Part shown: one piece after another, positions 7,460 to 15,340 of the stretch | Numbering within the stretch: position 1 is the first letter of the stretch | Layout: every line of letters starts with the position of its first letter | Assembly (NCBI RefSeq): GCF_003790525.1 | Contig: NZ_CP033635.1 | DNA length: 64,000 bases | Origin: Escherichia coli | Lineage (GTDB): Bacteria; Pseudomonadota; Gammaproteobacteria; Enterobacterales; Enterobacteriaceae | Reading direction: 5' to 3' (one strand) | Position numbers and translations under genes: made by a program | Notes under the pieces: model-generated | Seen by the model: only the letters and a program-made list of their open reading frames with translations | What the model was told of the DNA's origin: nothing | The model's database searches: none

Positions 7460-9537
7460 CATTTACCGCCAATTGTCGCCGTCATGCGGATATGTCGGTT
7501 ATCAGACAGTTCCAGATTCGACAGCACCACTAACTGCGGCAGACTGCGGCGCAGGAAGCGAGACAATAAAGGTCGCAGCGCGTGGTTCACCAATAAAACT
7601 GGCGGCGCACCCAACATCTCCTGACGGGATAGCGCTTCCTGAGTTTGCGCCAGTAAACGATCCGCCAGCCCTGGCTCCAGTCCGCCCCCGCCCTGCAGCG
7701 CCTGTAGTAACAAACGTTCCAGCGGTGTATCGAGGCCAATAACATGGACTTCATCTTTGCCAGGAAACCACTGCTGGGTAATCGCCCGTCCCAACGCCAC
7801 GCGCACGACGGCGGTTAATTCATGTGGATCGCTTTGGATGGGCGCATGTTCCGCCAGCGTTTCGAGAATAGTGCGCATATCGCGAATCGGTACTTTTTCA
7901 TCGAGCAGATTTTGCAGCACTTTATGCAGTGTGGTGAGCGTGACGACGCCAGGAACGAGATCTTCCGTCAGCTTTGGCATCTCCTGGGCGACGCGATCCA
8001 GCAGCTGTTGCGCCTCCTGACGACCAAACAGCTCTGCGGCATGCTGGCTAATGAGGTGGTTAAGATGCGTTGCCACCACCGTGCTGGCCTCAACCACGGT
8101 GTATCCCTGAATCTGCGCCTGTTCTTTAAGCGCACTTTCAATCCAGATAGCATTCAGGCCAAATGCCGGATCGACGGTCGCCTCACCAGGTAACGTCCCG
8201 GCAGCGGTACCAGGGTTAATCGCCAACCAACGCCCCGGATAAGCATCACCACTGCCTATCTCCACGCCTTTCATCAAAATGCGATAGCGGGCAGGTTGCA
8301 GATCCATATTGTCGCGAATGTGCACCACCGGCGGCAGAAACCCCATCTCCTGGGCAAATTTCTTGCGAATACTGCGTATACGGCCCAGCAACTCACCATC
8401 CTGCTGGAAATCGACCATCGGGATCAGGCGATAACCCACTTCCATTCCCAGAGAATCTTCCAGTTGTACATCGTTCCACGTCGCTTCGACAACGGTATTA
8501 TTCTCTGCCATTTTTACCGGTTTTGGTTCGGCAGGCGCTTTTTGTTCACGTCCACGGATCCACCAGGCCAGCCCCAGCAATCCGGCAGTGAACAGCAAAA
8601 ATACCAGGTTTGGCATTCCAGGCACCAGGCCGAGTAAACCGAGCACGGCGGCGCTTAACAACATAACGCTTGGGTTACTGAAAAGCTGATTCACCATCTG
8701 CTCGCCAACATCCTGATCGGTGCTGACACGCGTAACGATGACCCCCGCGGCGGTAGAAATCACCAACGCCGGAATTTGTGCCACCAGACCGTCGCCAATG
8801 GTCAATAGCGTATAACTTTCCGCCGCGTGTCCCATGCTCATGCCATGTTGCAGCACGCCGACCAGCAACCCGCCGACAACGTTAATGACCATGATGAGGA
8901 TCCCGGCGATGGCATCGCCGCGAACAAACTTACTTGCCCCATCCATTGAGCCGTAAAAATCGGCTTCCTGAGTCACTTCGGAGCGGCGTTTTTTCGCCTC
9001 ATCTTCACCAATCAATCCAGCGTTAAGGTCGGCGTCAATCGCCATCTGCTTACCCGGCATGCCATCGAGAACAAAGCGCGCACCCACTTCTGCGATACGC
9101 CCGGCACCTTTGGTAATGACCATAAAGTTGATGATCACGAGAATGACAAACACCACGATACCGATAGCGAAATTGCCACCAACGAGGAAGTGACCGAACG
9201 CTTCGACCACCTTTCCAGCCGCCGCCGCGCCGGTATGCCCTTCCATCAAAATGATACGGGTTGAAGCCACGTTAAGTGCCAGACGCAACAGCGTGGTAAA
9301 CAACAGGATGGTCGGAAACGCAGCAAACTCAAGCGTGCGCTGGGTAAACATCGCCACCAGCAACACCATGATCGACAAGGCAATATTGAAGGTAAACAGC
9401 AGGTCGAGTATGAATGCGGGCAGTGGCAGTACCATCATCGACAAGATCAACAGGATCAAAATCGGTCCGGCAAGGATCTGCCATTGTGTCGATTTCAGGT
9501 TTGCGGGCAGGCGCAGCATCGCGGCCAGATTACTCAT
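7459..9537 (-). CDS. flhA: flagellar export apparatus protein FlhA
   Basis: 692-aa ORF MSNLAAMLRLPANLKSTQWQILAGPILILL... Confidence 0.97.
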   Translation of the reverse strand: MSNLAAMLRLPANLKSTQWQILAGPILILLILSMMVLPLPAFILDLLFTFNIALSIMVLLVAMFTQRTLEFAAFPTILLFTTLLRLALNVASTRIILMEGHTGAAAAGKVVEAFGHFLVGGNFAIGIVVFVILVIINFMVITKGAGRIAEVGARFVLDGMPGKQMAIDADLNAGLIGEDEAKKRRSEVTQEADFYGSMDGASKFVRGDAIAGILIMVINVVGGLLVGVLQHGMSMGHAAESYTLLTIGDGLVAQIPALVISTAAGVIVTRVSTDQDVGEQMVNQLFSNPSVMLLSAAVLGLLGLVPGMPNLVFLLFTAGLLGLAWWIRGREQKAPAEPKPVKMAENNTVVEATWNDVQLEDSLGMEVGYRLIPMVDFQQDGELLGRIRSIRKKFAQEMGFLPPVVHIRDNMDLQPARYRILMKGVEIGSGDAYPGRWLAINPGTAAGTLPGEATVDPAFGLNAIWIESALKEQAQIQGYTVVEASTVVATHLNHLISQHAAELFGRQEAQQLLDRVAQEMPKLTEDLVPGVVTLTTLHKVLQNLLDEKVPIRDMRTILETLAEHAPIQSDPHELTAVVRVALGRAITQQWFPGKDEVHVIGLDTPLERLLLQALQGGGGLEPGLADRLLAQTQEALSRQEMLGAPPVLLVNHALRPLLSRFLRRSLPQLVVLSNLELSDNRHIRMTATIGGK

Positions 9538-10678
9538 GGGACGGTTTCTCGTTAATAAAATCCAGGGCTTCCGGCACCGGAAGATGAGTAGGTTGTACAG
9601 GGCGCTGTCCTCCAGCCAGACGCCAGCGTTTCAGTTGCCAGACCCAGGCCAGCACTTCCGCTACCGCGGCGTACAGTTGACCCGGGATTTGTTGACCGAT
9701 CTCCGCATGTCGATACAGCGCTCGCGCCAGCGGCGGCGCTTCAAGCGTAGGGACGTTATTTTCAGCACCAATTTCACGAATGCGCAGCGCGACCAGTCCT
9801 GCACCTTTAGCGACCACTTTCGGTGCGCTCATTTTGTTTTCGTCATACTGCAACGCTACCGAATAGTGGGTTGGGTTATTGACAATGACATCCGCTTTCG
9901 GCACATCGGCCATCATCCGACGCCGCGCGGCAGCTCGCTGCATCTGACGTATCCGCCCTTTAACATGGGGGTCGCCTTCGCTTTGTTTGAACTCATCACG
10001 AATATCCTGCCGCGACATTCGCAGCTTTTTCAGGTGGCTGAAGATTTGGAAAAAGACGTCAAATCCCACCATCGGAATAACACCAAGCACCACCAGCAGT
10101 GCGCATAGCCCTACCAGATCCATCGCATTACCCATGGCGGTAATCGGAGACTCGGCCATTAAGCGCATCATCTGCGGCCAGTGATGCCAGAGAAAAAACC
10201 CCGTCACGCTGCCAACCAGGATGGTTTTCAAAATTGCCTTAAGCAACTCCGCGCCAGTCTGTGCCGAGAACATCCGTTTAATGCCCGGTAGCGGGTTGAG
10301 TTTGGAAAACTTCGGCTGCAAGGATTTGCCGCTAAATACCAGCCCCCCCAGCATAACCGGAGAAATAATCGCCACCAGCACCACGCCGCTAATCAGCGGT
10401 AGCAGCGCCAGCATGGCTTCTCTGATCAGCAGAATAATCTGCCCGAGGATCAAATTCGGGTCATTGATAATACTGTGATCAAAATGCAGCCCAGCGGAGA
10501 GCATGCCCGACAATCGACGGGCCAGCGACACACCGCCAAACCAGATAACACACACGCCCACTAACAAAATCAGCAGCGAGGTCAGTTCACGGGAACGCGG
10601 GATTTGCCCCTCTTCCCGCGCTTTTTCTAGTCGGTGAGGTGTGGGGGCTTCTGTTTTGTCGTCGCTCTCGTCAGACAC
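9530..10678 (-). CDS. flhB: flagellar export apparatus switch protein FlhB
   Basis: 382-aa ORF with NPTH autocleavage motif (VIVNNPTHYSVAL). Confidence 0.97.
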   Translation of the reverse strand: MSDESDDKTEAPTPHRLEKAREEGQIPRSRELTSLLILLVGVCVIWFGGVSLARRLSGMLSAGLHFDHSIINDPNLILGQIILLIREAMLALLPLISGVVLVAIISPVMLGGLVFSGKSLQPKFSKLNPLPGIKRMFSAQTGAELLKAILKTILVGSVTGFFLWHHWPQMMRLMAESPITAMGNAMDLVGLCALLVVLGVIPMVGFDVFFQIFSHLKKLRMSRQDIRDEFKQSEGDPHVKGRIRQMQRAAARRRMMADVPKADVIVNNPTHYSVALQYDENKMSAPKVVAKGAGLVALRIREIGAENNVPTLEAPPLARALYRHAEIGQQIPGQLYAAVAEVLAWVWQLKRWRLAGGQRPVQPTHLPVPEALDFINEKPSHE

Positions 10679-10914
10679 GTCGCCAATCCTGGAAAGAGTA
10701 TTAAGCGTAAATGATGCCAGATCGCAAAGCGTTCAATGGTTTGAGTAAGGGGCAAAACAGGCGGGATTTAGGGCGTTTATGCAAAAAACAGGTTCAGTTG
10801 CAGAACGTTTTGCGAACCATTTTCCAGTTCTGATATTTAGCCATTTAGCCTATAGAATCGCCCACCGCCTCTCTGTTAGTTTGCTAATAATTAAATTATT
10901 ACAAAGGCGATCAA
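10679..10914. promoter_or_regulatory. divergent intergenic region: flhBAE class-2 promoter region (minus) and putative promoter of the inserted cassette (plus)
   Basis: 236-bp gap between divergent starts; candidate sigma70-like elements ttgcga (10810-10815) and tatagaat (10851-10858); RBS aagg 9-12 nt upstream of ATG 10915. Confidence 0.4.
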
Positions 10915-12423
10915 ATGGAATGGCAACAATTGCTTAACTGCAACCGTCGGAAAGATAATCTAAAAAAAACCAGCATAGAATTTTTACATCCCCTTGCTAG
11001 CGGAAGACAAGAGATCGAGCGGGATTACGACCGATTACTTTTTGCTGCGCCAACTCGTCGGCTTGCGGATAAAACACAAGTTTTCCCGTTAGATCAAAAT
11101 GACAGTATACGGACGAGGCTGACTCATTCTCACGAAGTAGCAAACTTTGCTCGCGGAATAGGAATGAGACTCGCTTTCGAGATGAAGGAACACATCTTTG
11201 GCGAAATACCCACGGGGATTGTCGTTGAACGCGACGTTCCTGCTCTGTTAGCAGCGATCGGACTGGCACACGATCTCGGTAATCCACCATTTGGGCATCA
11301 AGGTGAAGCAGCGATGCGCGCATGGTTTAATAAAAATCTTCCAGGCCTTCTTGATAAAGAAGTAAACAGCGAAATATATAACGACTTTCTGCAATTTGAT
11401 GGAAACTCACAAACCCTACGCCTGGTTACCAAATTACAAATTATTAACGATAACTTTGGTCTGAATCTGACCTATGCCACGCTGGCTGCACTGATCAAAT
11501 ATCCCCGAGCTTCATATTCATCGGACAAACATTGGAAAAAGCACGGTTTTTTCTATTCTGAGCATGAGGTTGTCATGGATGTCTGGCAGCAAACGGGCCT
11601 TGGCGTACCAGGTAATGATGCCGGTTGCCGCCACCCATTTACCTGGATAATGGAAGCTTGCGACGATATTGCCTACTCTGTGCTTGACGCAGAAGATACC
11701 ATCAAGAAAGGATTTGCCTCATACCAGGATTTGCGTGATTTTTTGATGTCACAATCCGAGCCGAACGATGTAATTCAACATGTTATTGAAGCTGTAGAGG
11801 CCAAAAATGACGCCTGGAAAGAGCAAAGAAATGCACTTTCACCGGCGGAAATTAATGAACTCAGTATGCAAATGTTCAGAGTTTATGCCACCAGTGCATT
11901 GATTAATGCCGTAGTAGAAGCCTTTCGCGAACAATTACCCACGCTGATGCAGCGTGACTGCCCGTTCAAAGATTTAATCTCGCAAAGCAAAGGTCACGCT
12001 CTCTGCACTGCCCTGAAAATGTTCGACCGAACACGAGGCTACCTTCATCGTTCAGTCTTGCAACTGGAACTTAGGGGATCTAATTACATTACTAACTTGA
12101 TGGATATGCTCTGGATTGGCATCCATGGACACAAAACAAAGAAACAACGAGACGGAGAACGCGAGTCCGCGTCTGCAGATAACCTTTTTGTTTCTCGTGA
12201 AGAATACCTGTCGGATACTCCCTTTGGTCGCTATGCTTACGGGACAATCTCTGAAAATTATCGCCGTGTGTTTGAAGATCCCGCCAATACACTCCCTGCT
12301 CTTTATAAAGAAGCGCAGTTGCTTACCGACGCAATCTCAGGCATGACGGATAGTTATTTAATGCGCCTTCACGATGAGCTAAAATCACTGTATGAATGTG
12401 GTCTCAAACACCCAACAGCTTGA
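10915..12423 (+). CDS. dGTP triphosphohydrolase (Dgt)-family HD-domain protein, extra paralog in non-native locus
   Basis: 502-aa ORF; motifs RRLADKTQVFPL, RTRLTHSHEV, HDLGNPPFGHQGE, FDGNSQTLRL, WIMEACDDIAYSVLDAEDTI, ISGMTDSYL align with E. coli Dgt by eye; AT-rich; opposite strand to flanking flagellar genes. Confidence 0.8.
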   Translation: MEWQQLLNCNRRKDNLKKTSIEFLHPLASGRQEIERDYDRLLFAAPTRRLADKTQVFPLDQNDSIRTRLTHSHEVANFARGIGMRLAFEMKEHIFGEIPTGIVVERDVPALLAAIGLAHDLGNPPFGHQGEAAMRAWFNKNLPGLLDKEVNSEIYNDFLQFDGNSQTLRLVTKLQIINDNFGLNLTYATLAALIKYPRASYSSDKHWKKHGFFYSEHEVVMDVWQQTGLGVPGNDAGCRHPFTWIMEACDDIAYSVLDAEDTIKKGFASYQDLRDFLMSQSEPNDVIQHVIEAVEAKNDAWKEQRNALSPAEINELSMQMFRVYATSALINAVVEAFREQLPTLMQRDCPFKDLISQSKGHALCTALKMFDRTRGYLHRSVLQLELRGSNYITNLMDMLWIGIHGHKTKKQRDGERESASADNLFVSREEYLSDTPFGRYAYGTISENYRRVFEDPANTLPALYKEAQLLTDAISGMTDSYLMRLHDELKSLYECGLKHPTA

Positions 12424-13144
12424 ACAGCGTATCGCCGATTTTTTTACGCTTAGTGATGAGCATAAGAAAGCCAGAGTATTACTTGATACTCTGGCCTGTT
12501 CCTGTCCGGCCTGGATTTTTGGCGGGATGGTGCGTGACTTAGGCTTGTTTGGCGTCGAGGGATTCTCTTCAGACCTTGATATCGTCATCGGTCGCTCCCG
12601 TGAGGAACTCTTCCGGACATTGGCTGAACTGCCCGTCAAACAACTGCGTTTTAATAAGTTCGGTGGGATCCGTTTTCGTTATCACGACTTCGAATTTGAT
12701 ATCTGGAACCTCAATGAGACATGGGCATTTCGGGAAAAACTTATATTTTGTGAGGATGAATCAAGTCTGTTAAACACTACGCTGATGAGTTGGGATGCCG
12801 TGCTCTATGATCTACGTAGTGAAAAAATTATCAGTAAAGATAATTATTTGACCGACTTAAATCGCAGACATCTTGAACTTGTTCTTCATACTAACCCCAA
12901 TCCAAGCGGTTCGGTAACGAAAATTTTACGCACTATTTTTACTAAGCAGGTAAAGAGTTTAGGTCCGGAACTCTGTCATTTCTTGCACCATGAACTGACG
13001 AAAAAACGTTATGAAGTTTGGCATCATTACGATGTACTGCACTACCAGTCATCGTCATTTTCTCGTTCACAATTTAATGCGTTGATAAATTTACTGGCGC
13101 AACAATCACGCTTCGCTGATCTAAAATTATCAAATTACAAATAA
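12392..13144 (+). CDS. Pol-beta superfamily nucleotidyltransferase, CCA-adding/poly(A) polymerase head-like
   Basis: 250-aa ORF with IFGGMVRDLGLFGVEGFSSDLDIVI, matching the GGxVRD...DxD head motif of class II tRNA nucleotidyltransferases; overlaps preceding gene by 32 nt; very AT-rich. Confidence 0.55.
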   Translation: MNVVSNTQQLEQRIADFFTLSDEHKKARVLLDTLACSCPAWIFGGMVRDLGLFGVEGFSSDLDIVIGRSREELFRTLAELPVKQLRFNKFGGIRFRYHDFEFDIWNLNETWAFREKLIFCEDESSLLNTTLMSWDAVLYDLRSEKIISKDNYLTDLNRRHLELVLHTNPNPSGSVTKILRTIFTKQVKSLGPELCHFLHHELTKKRYEVWHHYDVLHYQSSSFSRSQFNALINLLAQQSRFADLKLSNYK

Positions 13145-13231
13145 CCATCCTCCACATACTTCCTGAACGATACCCGCCCCCCTGCTATCGGCCTGGCATC
13201 ATCGCGCAGGCCGAAGTTAAGGCAATACAAA

Positions 13232-13876
13232 TCAAAATCCAAGACTATCCAACAAATCGTCCACCTGATCCTGACTGGCTACCACACCGGCTTTGCTGGT
13301 ATCGACCTGAGGTCCATTAAGCAAACTCTGGTTTTCACGTTTTGGACGCGACTCCTGTTCCGGGATGTTTTCCAACAGCACCATCAGCAACTGACGTTCG
13401 ATCTCCTGAATGACATCCATCATCCGCTTAATGACCTGCCCGGTGAGATCCTGAAAATCCTGCGCCATCATGATTTCCAGCAGTTGCGCGTTAGTAAAGC
13501 TGGTATGCGCGGGGACATCTGCCAGAAATTGCCGCGTATCTGTTACCAGTTCACGGGCGTCGGCAAGGTCAATCGGATCGGCAAACCAGTCATCCCAACG
13601 TTGGGTTAACGCTTTTGCTGATTTCTCCATTTGATCCTGATGCGGTTGTGACGCCTCAACACTGTTCAGCGCCCGCTCCGCAGCCTGGGCGGTCATCTGC
13701 ACAACATAGTACAAACGATCGCGCGCATCGGGGATGGCTTCCGCCGCTTCGGCAATGGCCTGATCCAGCCCCAGCTCCCGCAAACTGTCGCGCAGCATAC
13801 GCGTCAGGCTGCCGATGCGCGCAATGATATCGCCAGCTGAATGCTCGTCAGCAGGTTTGATTGATGGTTGCATCAT
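13232..13876 (-). CDS. cheZ: CheY-P phosphatase CheZ
   Basis: [35 protein letters not shown]... (214 aa from MMQPS). Confidence 0.96.
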
Positions 13877-13886
13877 AGTCGCATCC

Positions 13887-15340
<1,454 letters not shown>

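Follow-up and report, generated by a model that had tools for sequence, protein, structure and literature searches.

A predicted divergent Clover anti-phage operon in the flhB–cheZ spacer of Escherichia coli SMS-3-5

The accessory block between flhB and cheZ in Escherichia coli SMS-3-5 very likely encodes a Clover anti-phage operon, cloA–cloB, whose mechanism has been seen in homologues and is predicted here for the SMS-3-5 allele from sequence and structural models. Judged by its sequence, the pair is a divergent Clover copy: CloA is 60–62% identical to the tested proteins, and CloB only 35%. We analyzed the locus within a 64,000-nucleotide stretch of E. coli DNA (contig NZ_CP033635.1), referred to as the window, and compared the two genes and their insertion site with those of other genomes.

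Clover (CloA/CloB) was described by Yamaguchi et al. in a bioRxiv preprint of July 2025 (PMC12265719; CloA structures PDB 9p8s–9p8v), with Salmonella enterica SA20044414 and E. coli H5 providing the tested systems. CloA is a dGTPase turned on by dTTP, which goes up in T5-like phage infection, and CloB is a nucleotidyltransferase whose dinucleotide product, p3diT, holds CloA inactive; CloA assembles as an octameric "four-leaf" (PMC12265719). The tested homologues protect more than 10,000-fold against T5-like phages, for which the CloA HD motif is needed (PMC12265719). The pairing had also been mentioned on bioinformatic grounds by Nicastro et al. (2023). The preprint prints the CloA codes as 8P9S–8P9V, apparently a transposition, given that entries 9p8s–9p8v are titled "Structure of CloA..." in the PDB. 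An earlier note on this DNA, made without database searches, had taken the combination of a Dgt-like hydrolase and a nucleotidyltransferase to be undescribed; that claim falls, as the pair is already known as Clover and CloA structures are in the PDB (PMC12265719).

Results

The genes flhB (9530–10678) and cheZ (13232–13906) both lie on the minus strand, and the two genes between them, cloA (ORF1; 10915–12423) and cloB (ORF2; 12392–13144), lie on the plus strand. RefSeq names them "dgt" (WP_012311981.1) and hypothetical protein (WP_001103661.1) in SMS-3-5. The flhB–cheZ spacer measures 2,553 bp here versus 201 bp in an empty-site strain. Aligned with the empty allele, the match ends near 10775 and restarts near 13222, which delimits a block of ~2.45 kb (10776–13221) in place of the ~95 bp REP-like spacer of empty-site strains. 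GC content is 0.44 in the block (ORF1 0.45, ORF2 0.42), compared with 0.55 in flhB, 0.54 in cheZ and 0.50 in the remaining window. Two overlapping plus-strand genes, more AT-rich than their flanks and inserted relative to a short spacer, are what the earlier note had described, and all three observations hold. Comparison of the interval across E. coli bore out its status as accessory rather than core: the block was found in 106 of 5,426 complete genomes (~2%), a short empty site was present in ~5,279 others, and the cloA gene was missing, at flhB–cheZ or any other site, from 98% of genomes.

Within the window, the block is flanked by core genes for flagella and chemotaxis. Neither the block nor its flanks contain an integrase or transposase, and a search for flanking direct or inverted repeats returned only short, chance-level matches, in agreement with the earlier note. 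The SMS-3-5 operon probably entered, or was swapped, via recombination of the flanking core genes. A promoter-like site, CTGATA-17-TAGAAT (10830–10858, plus strand), lies 57 bp upstream of cloA as a putative native promoter; it came from a consensus scan whose match numbers by themselves are not above chance. It falls in a sequence block, TTCCAGTT..ATTTAGCCAT..CCTATAGAA, that is conserved 5′ of the homologous pair in another locus (L012) and that Enterobacter retains in part. RNA folding detected a GC-rich hairpin in the gap where cloB and cheZ converge (13184–13217; −24.3 kcal/mol and z = −3.1 on the plus strand, z = −1.5 on the minus strand). The hairpin lacks a T-tract and differs from a canonical intrinsic terminator, and a terminator scan reported none between cloB and cheZ; it may serve as a transcript-end structure. 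An Rfam scan of 10500–13400 gave a single sub-threshold snoRNA match, which we regard as noise.

The 502-aa product of cloA is a predicted dTTP-activated, p3diT-inhibited dGTP triphosphohydrolase, an assignment built on homology to PDB 9p8s–9p8v, an AlphaFold2 (AF2) model and mapped ligand-site residues. Salmonella CloA (9p8s–9p8v) was the top sequence match (phmmer E=5.6e-191; 62% identity by BLASTP, 60–62% across both tested CloA proteins), and 9p8u the top fold match of the model (Foldseek E=1.6e-40, TMt 0.90), with Dgt far behind at ~1e-19. The HD metal site is intact (H71/H119/D120/D250, equivalent to H69/H117/D118/D242 in Salmonella), as is the HE dyad (H128/E131, equivalent to H126/E129). 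These catalytic residues are invariant across 121 homologues save for one D-to-N change, and the earlier reading of gene 1 as an intact Dgt-family dGTPase, with predicted activity, stands.

Both predicted ligand sites are conserved in SMS-3-5 CloA. All nine dTTP-pocket residues (R49, D63, Q175, K264, S446, N448, A473, T478 and Y481) are identical to their Salmonella counterparts (R47, D61, Q172, K256, S418, N420, A444, T449 and Y452). In the p3diT pocket, nine of ten residues are identical (R31, R36, D39, R40, F43, N77, N184, Q319 and R322, matching Salmonella R29, R34, D37, R38, F41, N75, N181, Q311 and R314); the single contact change, T25 to L27, is at a position that also varies across the clade. 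Alignment of the 121 homologues showed the positions of both pockets to be near-invariant. The tetramer-stacking residue H263 of the tested CloA is Q271 here. The AF2 monomer model has low confidence at residues 46–67 and 177–179, and these are the two loops called ligand-switched in PMC12265719.

Family models placed ORF1 in the wider dGTPase family and outside its named subgroups. It matched the PADLOC dGTPase model (5.8e-71) and scored above the cutoff of TIGR01353. Its scores fell below the NCBIfam cutoffs for stand-alone antiphage dGTPases (NF041026, 183 vs 400 bits; NF003701, 153.5 vs 383) and for housekeeping Dgt (NF003429, 270.9 vs 405; NF002205, 358.3 vs 439).

The second gene, cloB, encodes a 250-aa Pol-beta-fold nucleotidyltransferase and predicted p3diT synthase, as indicated by full-length CloB homology, its motifs and an AF2 model (pLDDT 92). 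It is 35% identical over its full length to the tested CloB proteins (E=3e-55 for Salmonella, 1e-54 for E. coli H5), and its D61/D63 align with their catalytic D71/D73. The motifs G44-G45-M-V-R48-D49, D61-L-D63 and F-D103-I are invariant in 32 homologues and conform to the Pol-beta nucleotidyltransferase motif [D/E]h[D/E]...h[D/E]h of Clover CloB. The GGxVRD...DxD signature and Pol-beta fold recognized in the earlier note are thus present, and the best solved folds for the model were class II CCA-adding and A-adding enzymes (Foldseek E=5e-8, TMq 0.5–0.6). From sequence-profile libraries alone ORF2 would stay "unknown": it had no match in the PADLOC 2.0 and NCBIfam 20 scans, its Pfam hit to PolyA_pol (PF01743) was not significant (E=0.099), and its profile gave marginal CCA-enzyme matches among PDB sequences (E about 0.06) in the head motif only. 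The PADLOC run proposed in the earlier note for both proteins hit ORF1 and returned nothing for ORF2.

The last 32 nt of cloA (12392–12423, plus strand, from the ORF coordinates) are also the first of cloB, from which we infer translational coupling or co-expression. Overlapping layouts also occur in Salmonella (L013), E. coli H5 (L014), Pseudomonas (L017) and Vibrio (L019). Conservation of the pair, raised earlier as a test, extends well beyond E. coli: cloA and cloB were linked in every genome examined, across five recurring genera (Enterobacter, Atlantibacter, Salmonella, Vibrio and Pseudomonas). The Enterobacter pair occupies the same flhB–cheZ site, type I R-M and DarTG share an island with the Atlantibacter pair, and a distant metagenomic pair adjoins GmrSD. 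The Salmonella and E. coli H5 pairs sit in islands with a tyrosine integrase, that of H5 abutting tRNA-Sec, and these tested loci also carry a QueC/PfkB module. The defence-island association of Clover is thus seen in relatives, whereas the SMS-3-5 neighbours are core genes. One E. hormaechei genome has its cloA interrupted by an IS element next to an intact cloB, consistent with the toxicity reported for loss of CloB by itself. A Shigella flexneri cloB fragment (P0010), considered as a natural case of CloB loss, is cut off by a contig end. A 2,200-bp operon of the L012 type was considered as the E. coli H5 system for its matching length and rejected, the H5 system being a separate 471+276-aa pair beside tRNA-Sec.

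Alignment of the 121 CloA homologues also exposed a charged, hypervariable insertion in the C-terminal helical bundle (CloA residues 404–433; 12124–12213, plus strand). The loop has 30 residues here vs 10 in the tested Salmonella and E. coli H5 proteins, and ranges from 10 to 32 residues across the alignment. The 20–30-residue charged insertion is specific to the flhB–cheZ clade, whose members are E. coli SMS-3-5, Enterobacter, Cronobacter and Pseudescherichia. The AF2 model predicts a helix at residues 409–421 (pLDDT about 83–89). In the tested systems, the C-terminal bundle forms the dTTP pocket and determines how CloA oligomerizes (PMC12265719). Together with the 35%-identical CloB, the insertion might alter the threshold for activation, the state of assembly or the range of phages countered and so make the subclade a functionally distinct variant, a prospect that we rate as rather unlikely. 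Alternatively, it could be a fast-evolving surface that phage inhibitors target. One such inhibitor, T7 Gp1.2, targets Dgt.

Discussion

We propose that the SMS-3-5 operon works as its homologues do. CloB would constitutively couple two dTTP molecules into p3diT (pppdT-3′-5′-dT), which would occupy a pocket at the CloA dimer interface and lock the dGTPase off, so that uninfected cells would be spared dGTP starvation. A phage that remodels dNTP pools would raise dTTP, as T5-like phages do via Dmp and NrdAB. The raised dTTP would then fill a pocket adjacent to that of p3diT, the two being mutually exclusive, and order the α3–α4 loop to complete the active site. Active CloA would hydrolyse dGTP, deplete the pool and block phage DNA replication. 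Nucleotidyltransferase-regulated dNTP depletion, one of two roles put forward in the earlier note, has been demonstrated experimentally for homologous pairs (PMC12265719).

The closest competitor keeps the Clover architecture and alters its signalling, with the inhibitory nucleotide, the activating cue or its threshold, the oligomeric state or the phage range changed in this subclade. The distance of CloB from the tested enzymes (just 35% identity), the clade-specific insertion of 20–30 residues in the bundle of the dTTP pocket and oligomer interface, and the changes from H263 to Q271 and T25 to L27 would suit such a shift. However, the residues that read the bases are all kept, both for p3diT (D39, N77 and Q319) and for dTTP (D63, T478, Y481 and R49), and a distant Xanthomonas CloB likewise yields p3diT (PMC12265719). 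We consider this altered signalling distinctly improbable.

A persistence function would cast CloA as a toxin and the CloB product as its antidote, such that the pair would persist in the flhB–cheZ spacer because loss of CloB would be lethal, with phage defence secondary or absent for this allele. Such an addiction module shares its biochemistry with the Clover mechanism proposed above and differs from it in biological role only. It would account for the high toxicity of CloB active-site mutants in the tested systems (PMC12265719), for the overlap of the two genes, and for the one Enterobacter genome in which cloA is inactivated and cloB retained. Against it stand the strong, HD-dependent protection of the tested homologues against T5-like phages (PMC12265719) and the placement of relatives among defence genes, and we hold it to be very improbable.

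The second role suggested in the earlier note was tRNA 3′-end repair or tailing, in which the nucleotidyltransferase would extend tRNA or another RNA with the HD protein as phosphohydrolase partner, a pairing reminiscent of the head-plus-HD architecture of bacterial CCA-adding enzymes. Its appeal lies in the GGxVRD...DxD motif of ORF2 and in the class II CCA-adding and A-adding enzymes that are the best solved structures for its model. The C-terminal region of CCA-adding enzymes forms the tRNA-binding body and tail. At 250 aa, compared with 342–517 residues in the matched enzymes, ORF2 cannot carry that region. Moreover, the PolyA_pol match is not significant, ORF1 is a Dgt/CloA family member whose HD domain is not of the Cca type, and tested CloB homologues make p3diT, the dT-dT dinucleotide bound by CloA, instead (PMC12265719). 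tRNA repair is not supported, and we find it scarcely credible.

That ORF1 is a stand-alone dGTPase of the kind reported by Tal et al. (2022), or a spare Dgt, beside an unrelated ORF2, as its RefSeq name and its match to the single-gene PADLOC model (5.8e-71) might suggest, is refuted by the tie between ORF2 and the CloA clade in all genomes examined, in five genera, and by family scores below the antiphage_dGTPase (183 vs 400 bits) and Dgt (271 vs 405) cutoffs, and it agrees poorly with a block present in just 2% of E. coli genomes, leaving it next to no probability.

The Clover reading assigns a predicted mechanism to a gene labelled "dgt" in RefSeq and to its "hypothetical protein" neighbour, a pair present in about 2% of complete E. 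coli genomes and in many Enterobacter genomes. As CloB is missed by PADLOC 2.0, NCBIfam 20 and Pfam, Clover loci end up labelled as single-gene dGTPases. The locus belongs to a second, naturally divergent clade in which the generality of two-signal control by dTTP and p3diT could be gauged, and it could reveal whether the hypervariable CloA insertion alters sensing. It represents no new kind of biology, since a dGTPase effector restrained by a nucleotidyltransferase-made nucleotide is already published with structures.

Compared with the Clover systems of Salmonella and E. coli H5, the SMS-3-5 pair shares the order of a dNTPase gene followed by a nucleotidyltransferase gene, overlapping on the same strand (as in L013 and L014). 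Its CloA folds like theirs (TM 0.90) and retains the HD and HE residues together with the dTTP and p3diT pockets, and its CloB shares the Pol-beta triad and is homologous along the full length. Besides the sequence identities, the CloA insertion and Q271, the differences lie in CloB, which has 250 aa compared with 276–277 aa in the tested proteins and lacks an N-terminal extension of ~10 residues, and in the site, a flhB–cheZ spacer without integrase versus islands for the tested systems.

The stand-alone Sp-dGTPase of Shewanella putrefaciens (Tal et al. 2022; NF041026, PDB 9p8w) is, like CloA, an HD-domain dGTP triphosphohydrolase that defends by dGTP depletion. Its match to ORF1 is weak and confined to the N-terminal 170 residues (E=2.5e-24). 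In contrast to CloA, it forms a hexamer, lacks a nucleotidyltransferase partner, shows constitutive activity in vitro, and defends strongly against T7 but not T5 (PMC12265719). Housekeeping E. coli Dgt (PDB 4x9e and 6oiy; NF003429; ~505 aa) has the fold and catalytic residues of CloA at a structural identity of about 24–25% to ORF1; Dgt is core, whereas the SMS-3-5 block is accessory. Dgt is not known to be regulated by p3diT or dTTP.

Class II CCA-adding, A-adding and poly(A) polymerase enzymes (PF01743; PDB 3h3a, 4wby and 1vfg) have the GGxVRD helix-turn and DxD strand in common with CloB at 13–18% identity, in longer matched chains (342–517 residues). Tested CloB homologues produce a deoxy-dinucleotide signal instead of a tRNA tail. 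SAMHD1 resembles CloA as a dNTPase gated via a nucleotide at an allosteric site. The effectors and signals of SAMHD1, Hailong and Panoptes/MISS are unrelated to those of Clover; the defence systems Hailong and Panoptes/MISS resemble Clover in their logic, in that a nucleotide made by a nucleotidyltransferase holds the effector back (PMC12265719).

Results and discussion

Between flhB (9530–10678, minus strand, left flank) and cheZ (13232–13906, minus strand, right flank), the window carries an accessory block with two plus-strand genes sharing 32 nt: ORF1 (10915–12423, 502 aa; RefSeq 'dgt', WP_012311981.1) and ORF2 (12392–13144, 250 aa; RefSeq 'hypothetical protein', WP_001103661.1). The window sequence is that of E. 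coli SMS-3-5 (NC_010498.1, reverse strand), in which the flhB–cheZ spacer spans 2,553 bp, compared with 201 bp in one empty-site strain. Alignment of filled and empty alleles placed the block junctions near 10775 and 13222, where ~2.45 kb replaces a REP-like spacer of ~95 bp, and detected no target-site duplication at either. GC content was lower in the block (0.44) than in flhB (0.55) and cheZ (0.54), and neither annotation nor a repeat search of the block and its flanks revealed an integrase or transposase gene or any meaningful repeat on either side. The block was detected in 106/5,426 complete E. coli genomes (98.3–100% identity) and a short empty flhB–cheZ site in ~5,279 others, identifying it as accessory in the presence/absence comparison that the earlier note had proposed. 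That note's observation, an AT-rich insert of ~2.3 kb with two overlapping genes and without integrase, transposase, or flanking repeats, is confirmed in every respect, and its structural interpretation was correct.

Despite the insertion, ~97 bp directly preceding the flhB start codon (10679–10775) were kept unchanged, including an imperfect palindrome (~10705–10735) similar to an FlhDC box; therefore, the flhBAE promoter is probably intact. A promoter-like site at 10830–10858, the putative native promoter of the cloA–cloB operon, falls within sequence that is also conserved ahead of a homologue on a metagenomic enterobacterial contig (L012). A GC-rich hairpin without a T-tract separates the convergent cloB and cheZ (13184–13217; −24.3 kcal/mol, z = −3.1, RNA fold), and an Rfam scan of the block region returned no family match. 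Elsewhere in the flagellar region, a second small accessory islet (~56600–59040) between fliE and yedL contains an integrase gene fragment and espR3, a T3SS leucine-rich-repeat effector, and has the lowest GC content in the window (0.40).

ORF1 encodes an intact, full-length Dgt-family HD phosphohydrolase, as the earlier note had proposed. It scored above the TIGR01353 cutoff and matched the PADLOC dGTPase model (5.8e-71), yet fell below the NCBIfam cutoffs for housekeeping Dgt (271 vs 405 bits) and the curated cutoff for the stand-alone anti-phage dGTPase (183 vs 400 bits). Its best PDB sequence matches were four 2025 entries, 9p8s–9p8v (E = 5.6e-191), all other PDB dGTPases scoring 1e-53 or weaker. 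The AF2 model (pLDDT 85) again retrieved 9p8s–9p8v in Foldseek (TMt 0.90, 60–62% identity), with E. coli Dgt at ~1e-19. All four are titled as structures of CloA, covering the apo form, the protein co-expressed with CloB, and complexes with dGTP plus p3diT or dGTP plus dTTP. The Data Availability section of the corresponding preprint (PMC12265719) prints the coordinates as 8P9S–8P9V, probably a transposition.

ORF2 had no significant match in Pfam, PADLOC, or NCBIfam. Its homologues share an invariant Pol-beta nucleotidyltransferase signature (G44-G45...R48-D49...S60-D61-x-D63...D103), and its confident AF2 model (pLDDT 92) most resembled class II CCA-adding/A-adding enzymes among solved folds (Foldseek E = 5e-8, TMq 0.5–0.6, 13–18% identity), bearing out the CCA-head-like assignment. 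A role in tRNA repair, suggested earlier, was not supported. The C-terminal region of class II CCA-adding enzymes forms the tRNA-binding body and tail, and the matched chains comprise 342–517 residues; at only 250 aa, ORF2 therefore cannot contain this region.

The pair belongs to Clover, a system already described mechanistically and structurally, and the proposal of an undescribed system is not supported. Yamaguchi et al. 2025 (PMC12265719) gave the name to dNTPase–NTase operons, reported >650 systems, and credited a prior bioinformatic mention to Nicastro et al. 2023. In the systems of Salmonella enterica SA20044414 and E. coli H5, CloA alone is an inactive dGTPase activated specifically by dTTP (EC50 about 15 µM). 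CloB produces p3diT (5'-triphosphothymidyl-3'5'-thymidine), which occupies the CloA dimer interface, inhibits CloA (IC50 about 7.6 µM), and is mutually exclusive with dTTP. The CloB active-site mutants D71A/D73A are toxic. Protection against T5-like phages exceeds 10,000-fold and is lost in CloA HD mutants, and T5, Bas28, and Bas29 escape via mutations in dmp and nrdAB, genes raising dNTP pools (all PMC12265719). We recovered both loci, with cloA–cloB at L013:6001–8203 (Salmonella, 2,203 bp) and L014:6920–9119 (H5, 2,200 bp), matching the published operon lengths.

We mapped the published residue lists onto ORF1. All catalytic residues (6/6) and dTTP contacts (9/9) were conserved, including the dTTP base-reading residues D63, T478, Y481, and R49, as were 9/10 p3diT contacts (exception T25 to L27), among them the base-reading D39, N77, and Q319 (3/3). 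These positions were near-invariant across 121 CloA-clade homologues. Low model confidence at residues 46–67 and 177–179 coincided with the α3–α4 and α8–α9 loops, which are ligand-switched according to PMC12265719. D61/D63 of ORF2 align with D71/D73 of the tested CloB. Judged from these homologues at every biochemical step, the pair is very probably a functional cloAB operon, in which p3diT made by CloB would hold the CloA dGTPase off and dTTP would activate it.

CloB homologues comprised 1,029 cluster representatives (E ≤ 1e-3), and the conservation check suggested earlier found a CloA-clade gene followed by an overlapping cloB in every genome examined. Their surroundings varied. The Enterobacter hormaechei pair occupies the flhB–cheZ site as in the window, the L012 pair adjoins cheZ, and the Atlantibacter hermannii pair adjoins a type I R-M system and DarTG. 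A distant pair (CloB identity 32%) adjoins GmrSD and transposases. The Salmonella and H5 pairs lie in islands with a tyrosine integrase (the latter beside tRNA-Sec), and the Vibrio harveyi pair in an island that adjoins smpB and carries an integrase-domain fragment. In Pseudomonas (L017/L018:4001–9401), the pair directly adjoins nrdB and nrdA, which encode the host's class Ia ribonucleotide reductase, an enzyme family whose phage versions yield Clover escape mutants; this may be coincidence. In a single case (E. hormaechei, L003:3365–6038), cloA is broken by an IS3-family element into pieces of 396 and 87 aa and cloB is left intact, the direction expected if CloB loss alone is lethal, which fits the reported asymmetry between toxic loss of CloB and tolerated loss of CloA. 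In Shigella flexneri (L020:1–483), a cloB fragment by cheZ (C-terminal 137 residues, 91% identical) stops at the contig end, where an IS element may have interrupted assembly.

A further module adjoins Clover in Salmonella (L013:1489–5671), H5 (L014:2353–6535), and Atlantibacter (L006:80–4259), encoding a small hypothetical protein, a PfkB-kinase/nucleoside 2-deoxyribosyltransferase fusion, QueC, a ~224-aa hypothetical protein, an Ogg-HhH glycosylase, and a Dam-like methylase. PADLOC identified only QueC and the methylase. A kinase-less core in different gene order adjoins Clover in V. harveyi (L019:6325–9317). These genes may travel with Clover, a system that depletes dGTP, as a modification or defence module of the 7-deazaguanine type.

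Compared with the tested systems, the window pair falls in a distinct subclade represented in E. coli, Enterobacter, Cronobacter, and Pseudescherichia. It occupies the flhB–cheZ spacer without mobility genes, whereas the H5-type system, present in only ~8–9 complete E. coli genomes, occupies another locus. Window CloA is 62% and 60% identical to Salmonella and H5 CloA, and CloB of the window aligns with each tested CloB along its entire length at 35% identity (E = 3e-55 for Salmonella, 1e-54 for H5) but lacks their ~10-residue N-terminal extension. H263 of tested CloA, which stacks between tetramer-forming protomers (PMC12265719), corresponds to Q271. A charged insertion in the C-terminal bundle (residues 404–433; 12124–12213, plus strand), with an extra helix predicted at 409–421 (AF2 model), spans 30 aa instead of 10 aa. 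In the 121-homologue alignment, it ranged from 10 to 32 aa and was hypervariable in length and sequence among CloA proteins otherwise 60–80% identical, as is characteristic of surfaces exposed to diversifying pressure; the same bundle forms the dTTP pocket and sets oligomeric state, octameric in the tested system (PMC12265719). What remains of interest in the window pair is the divergence of its subclade, the hypervariable insertion in its CloA, and a CloB so far missed by annotation resources.
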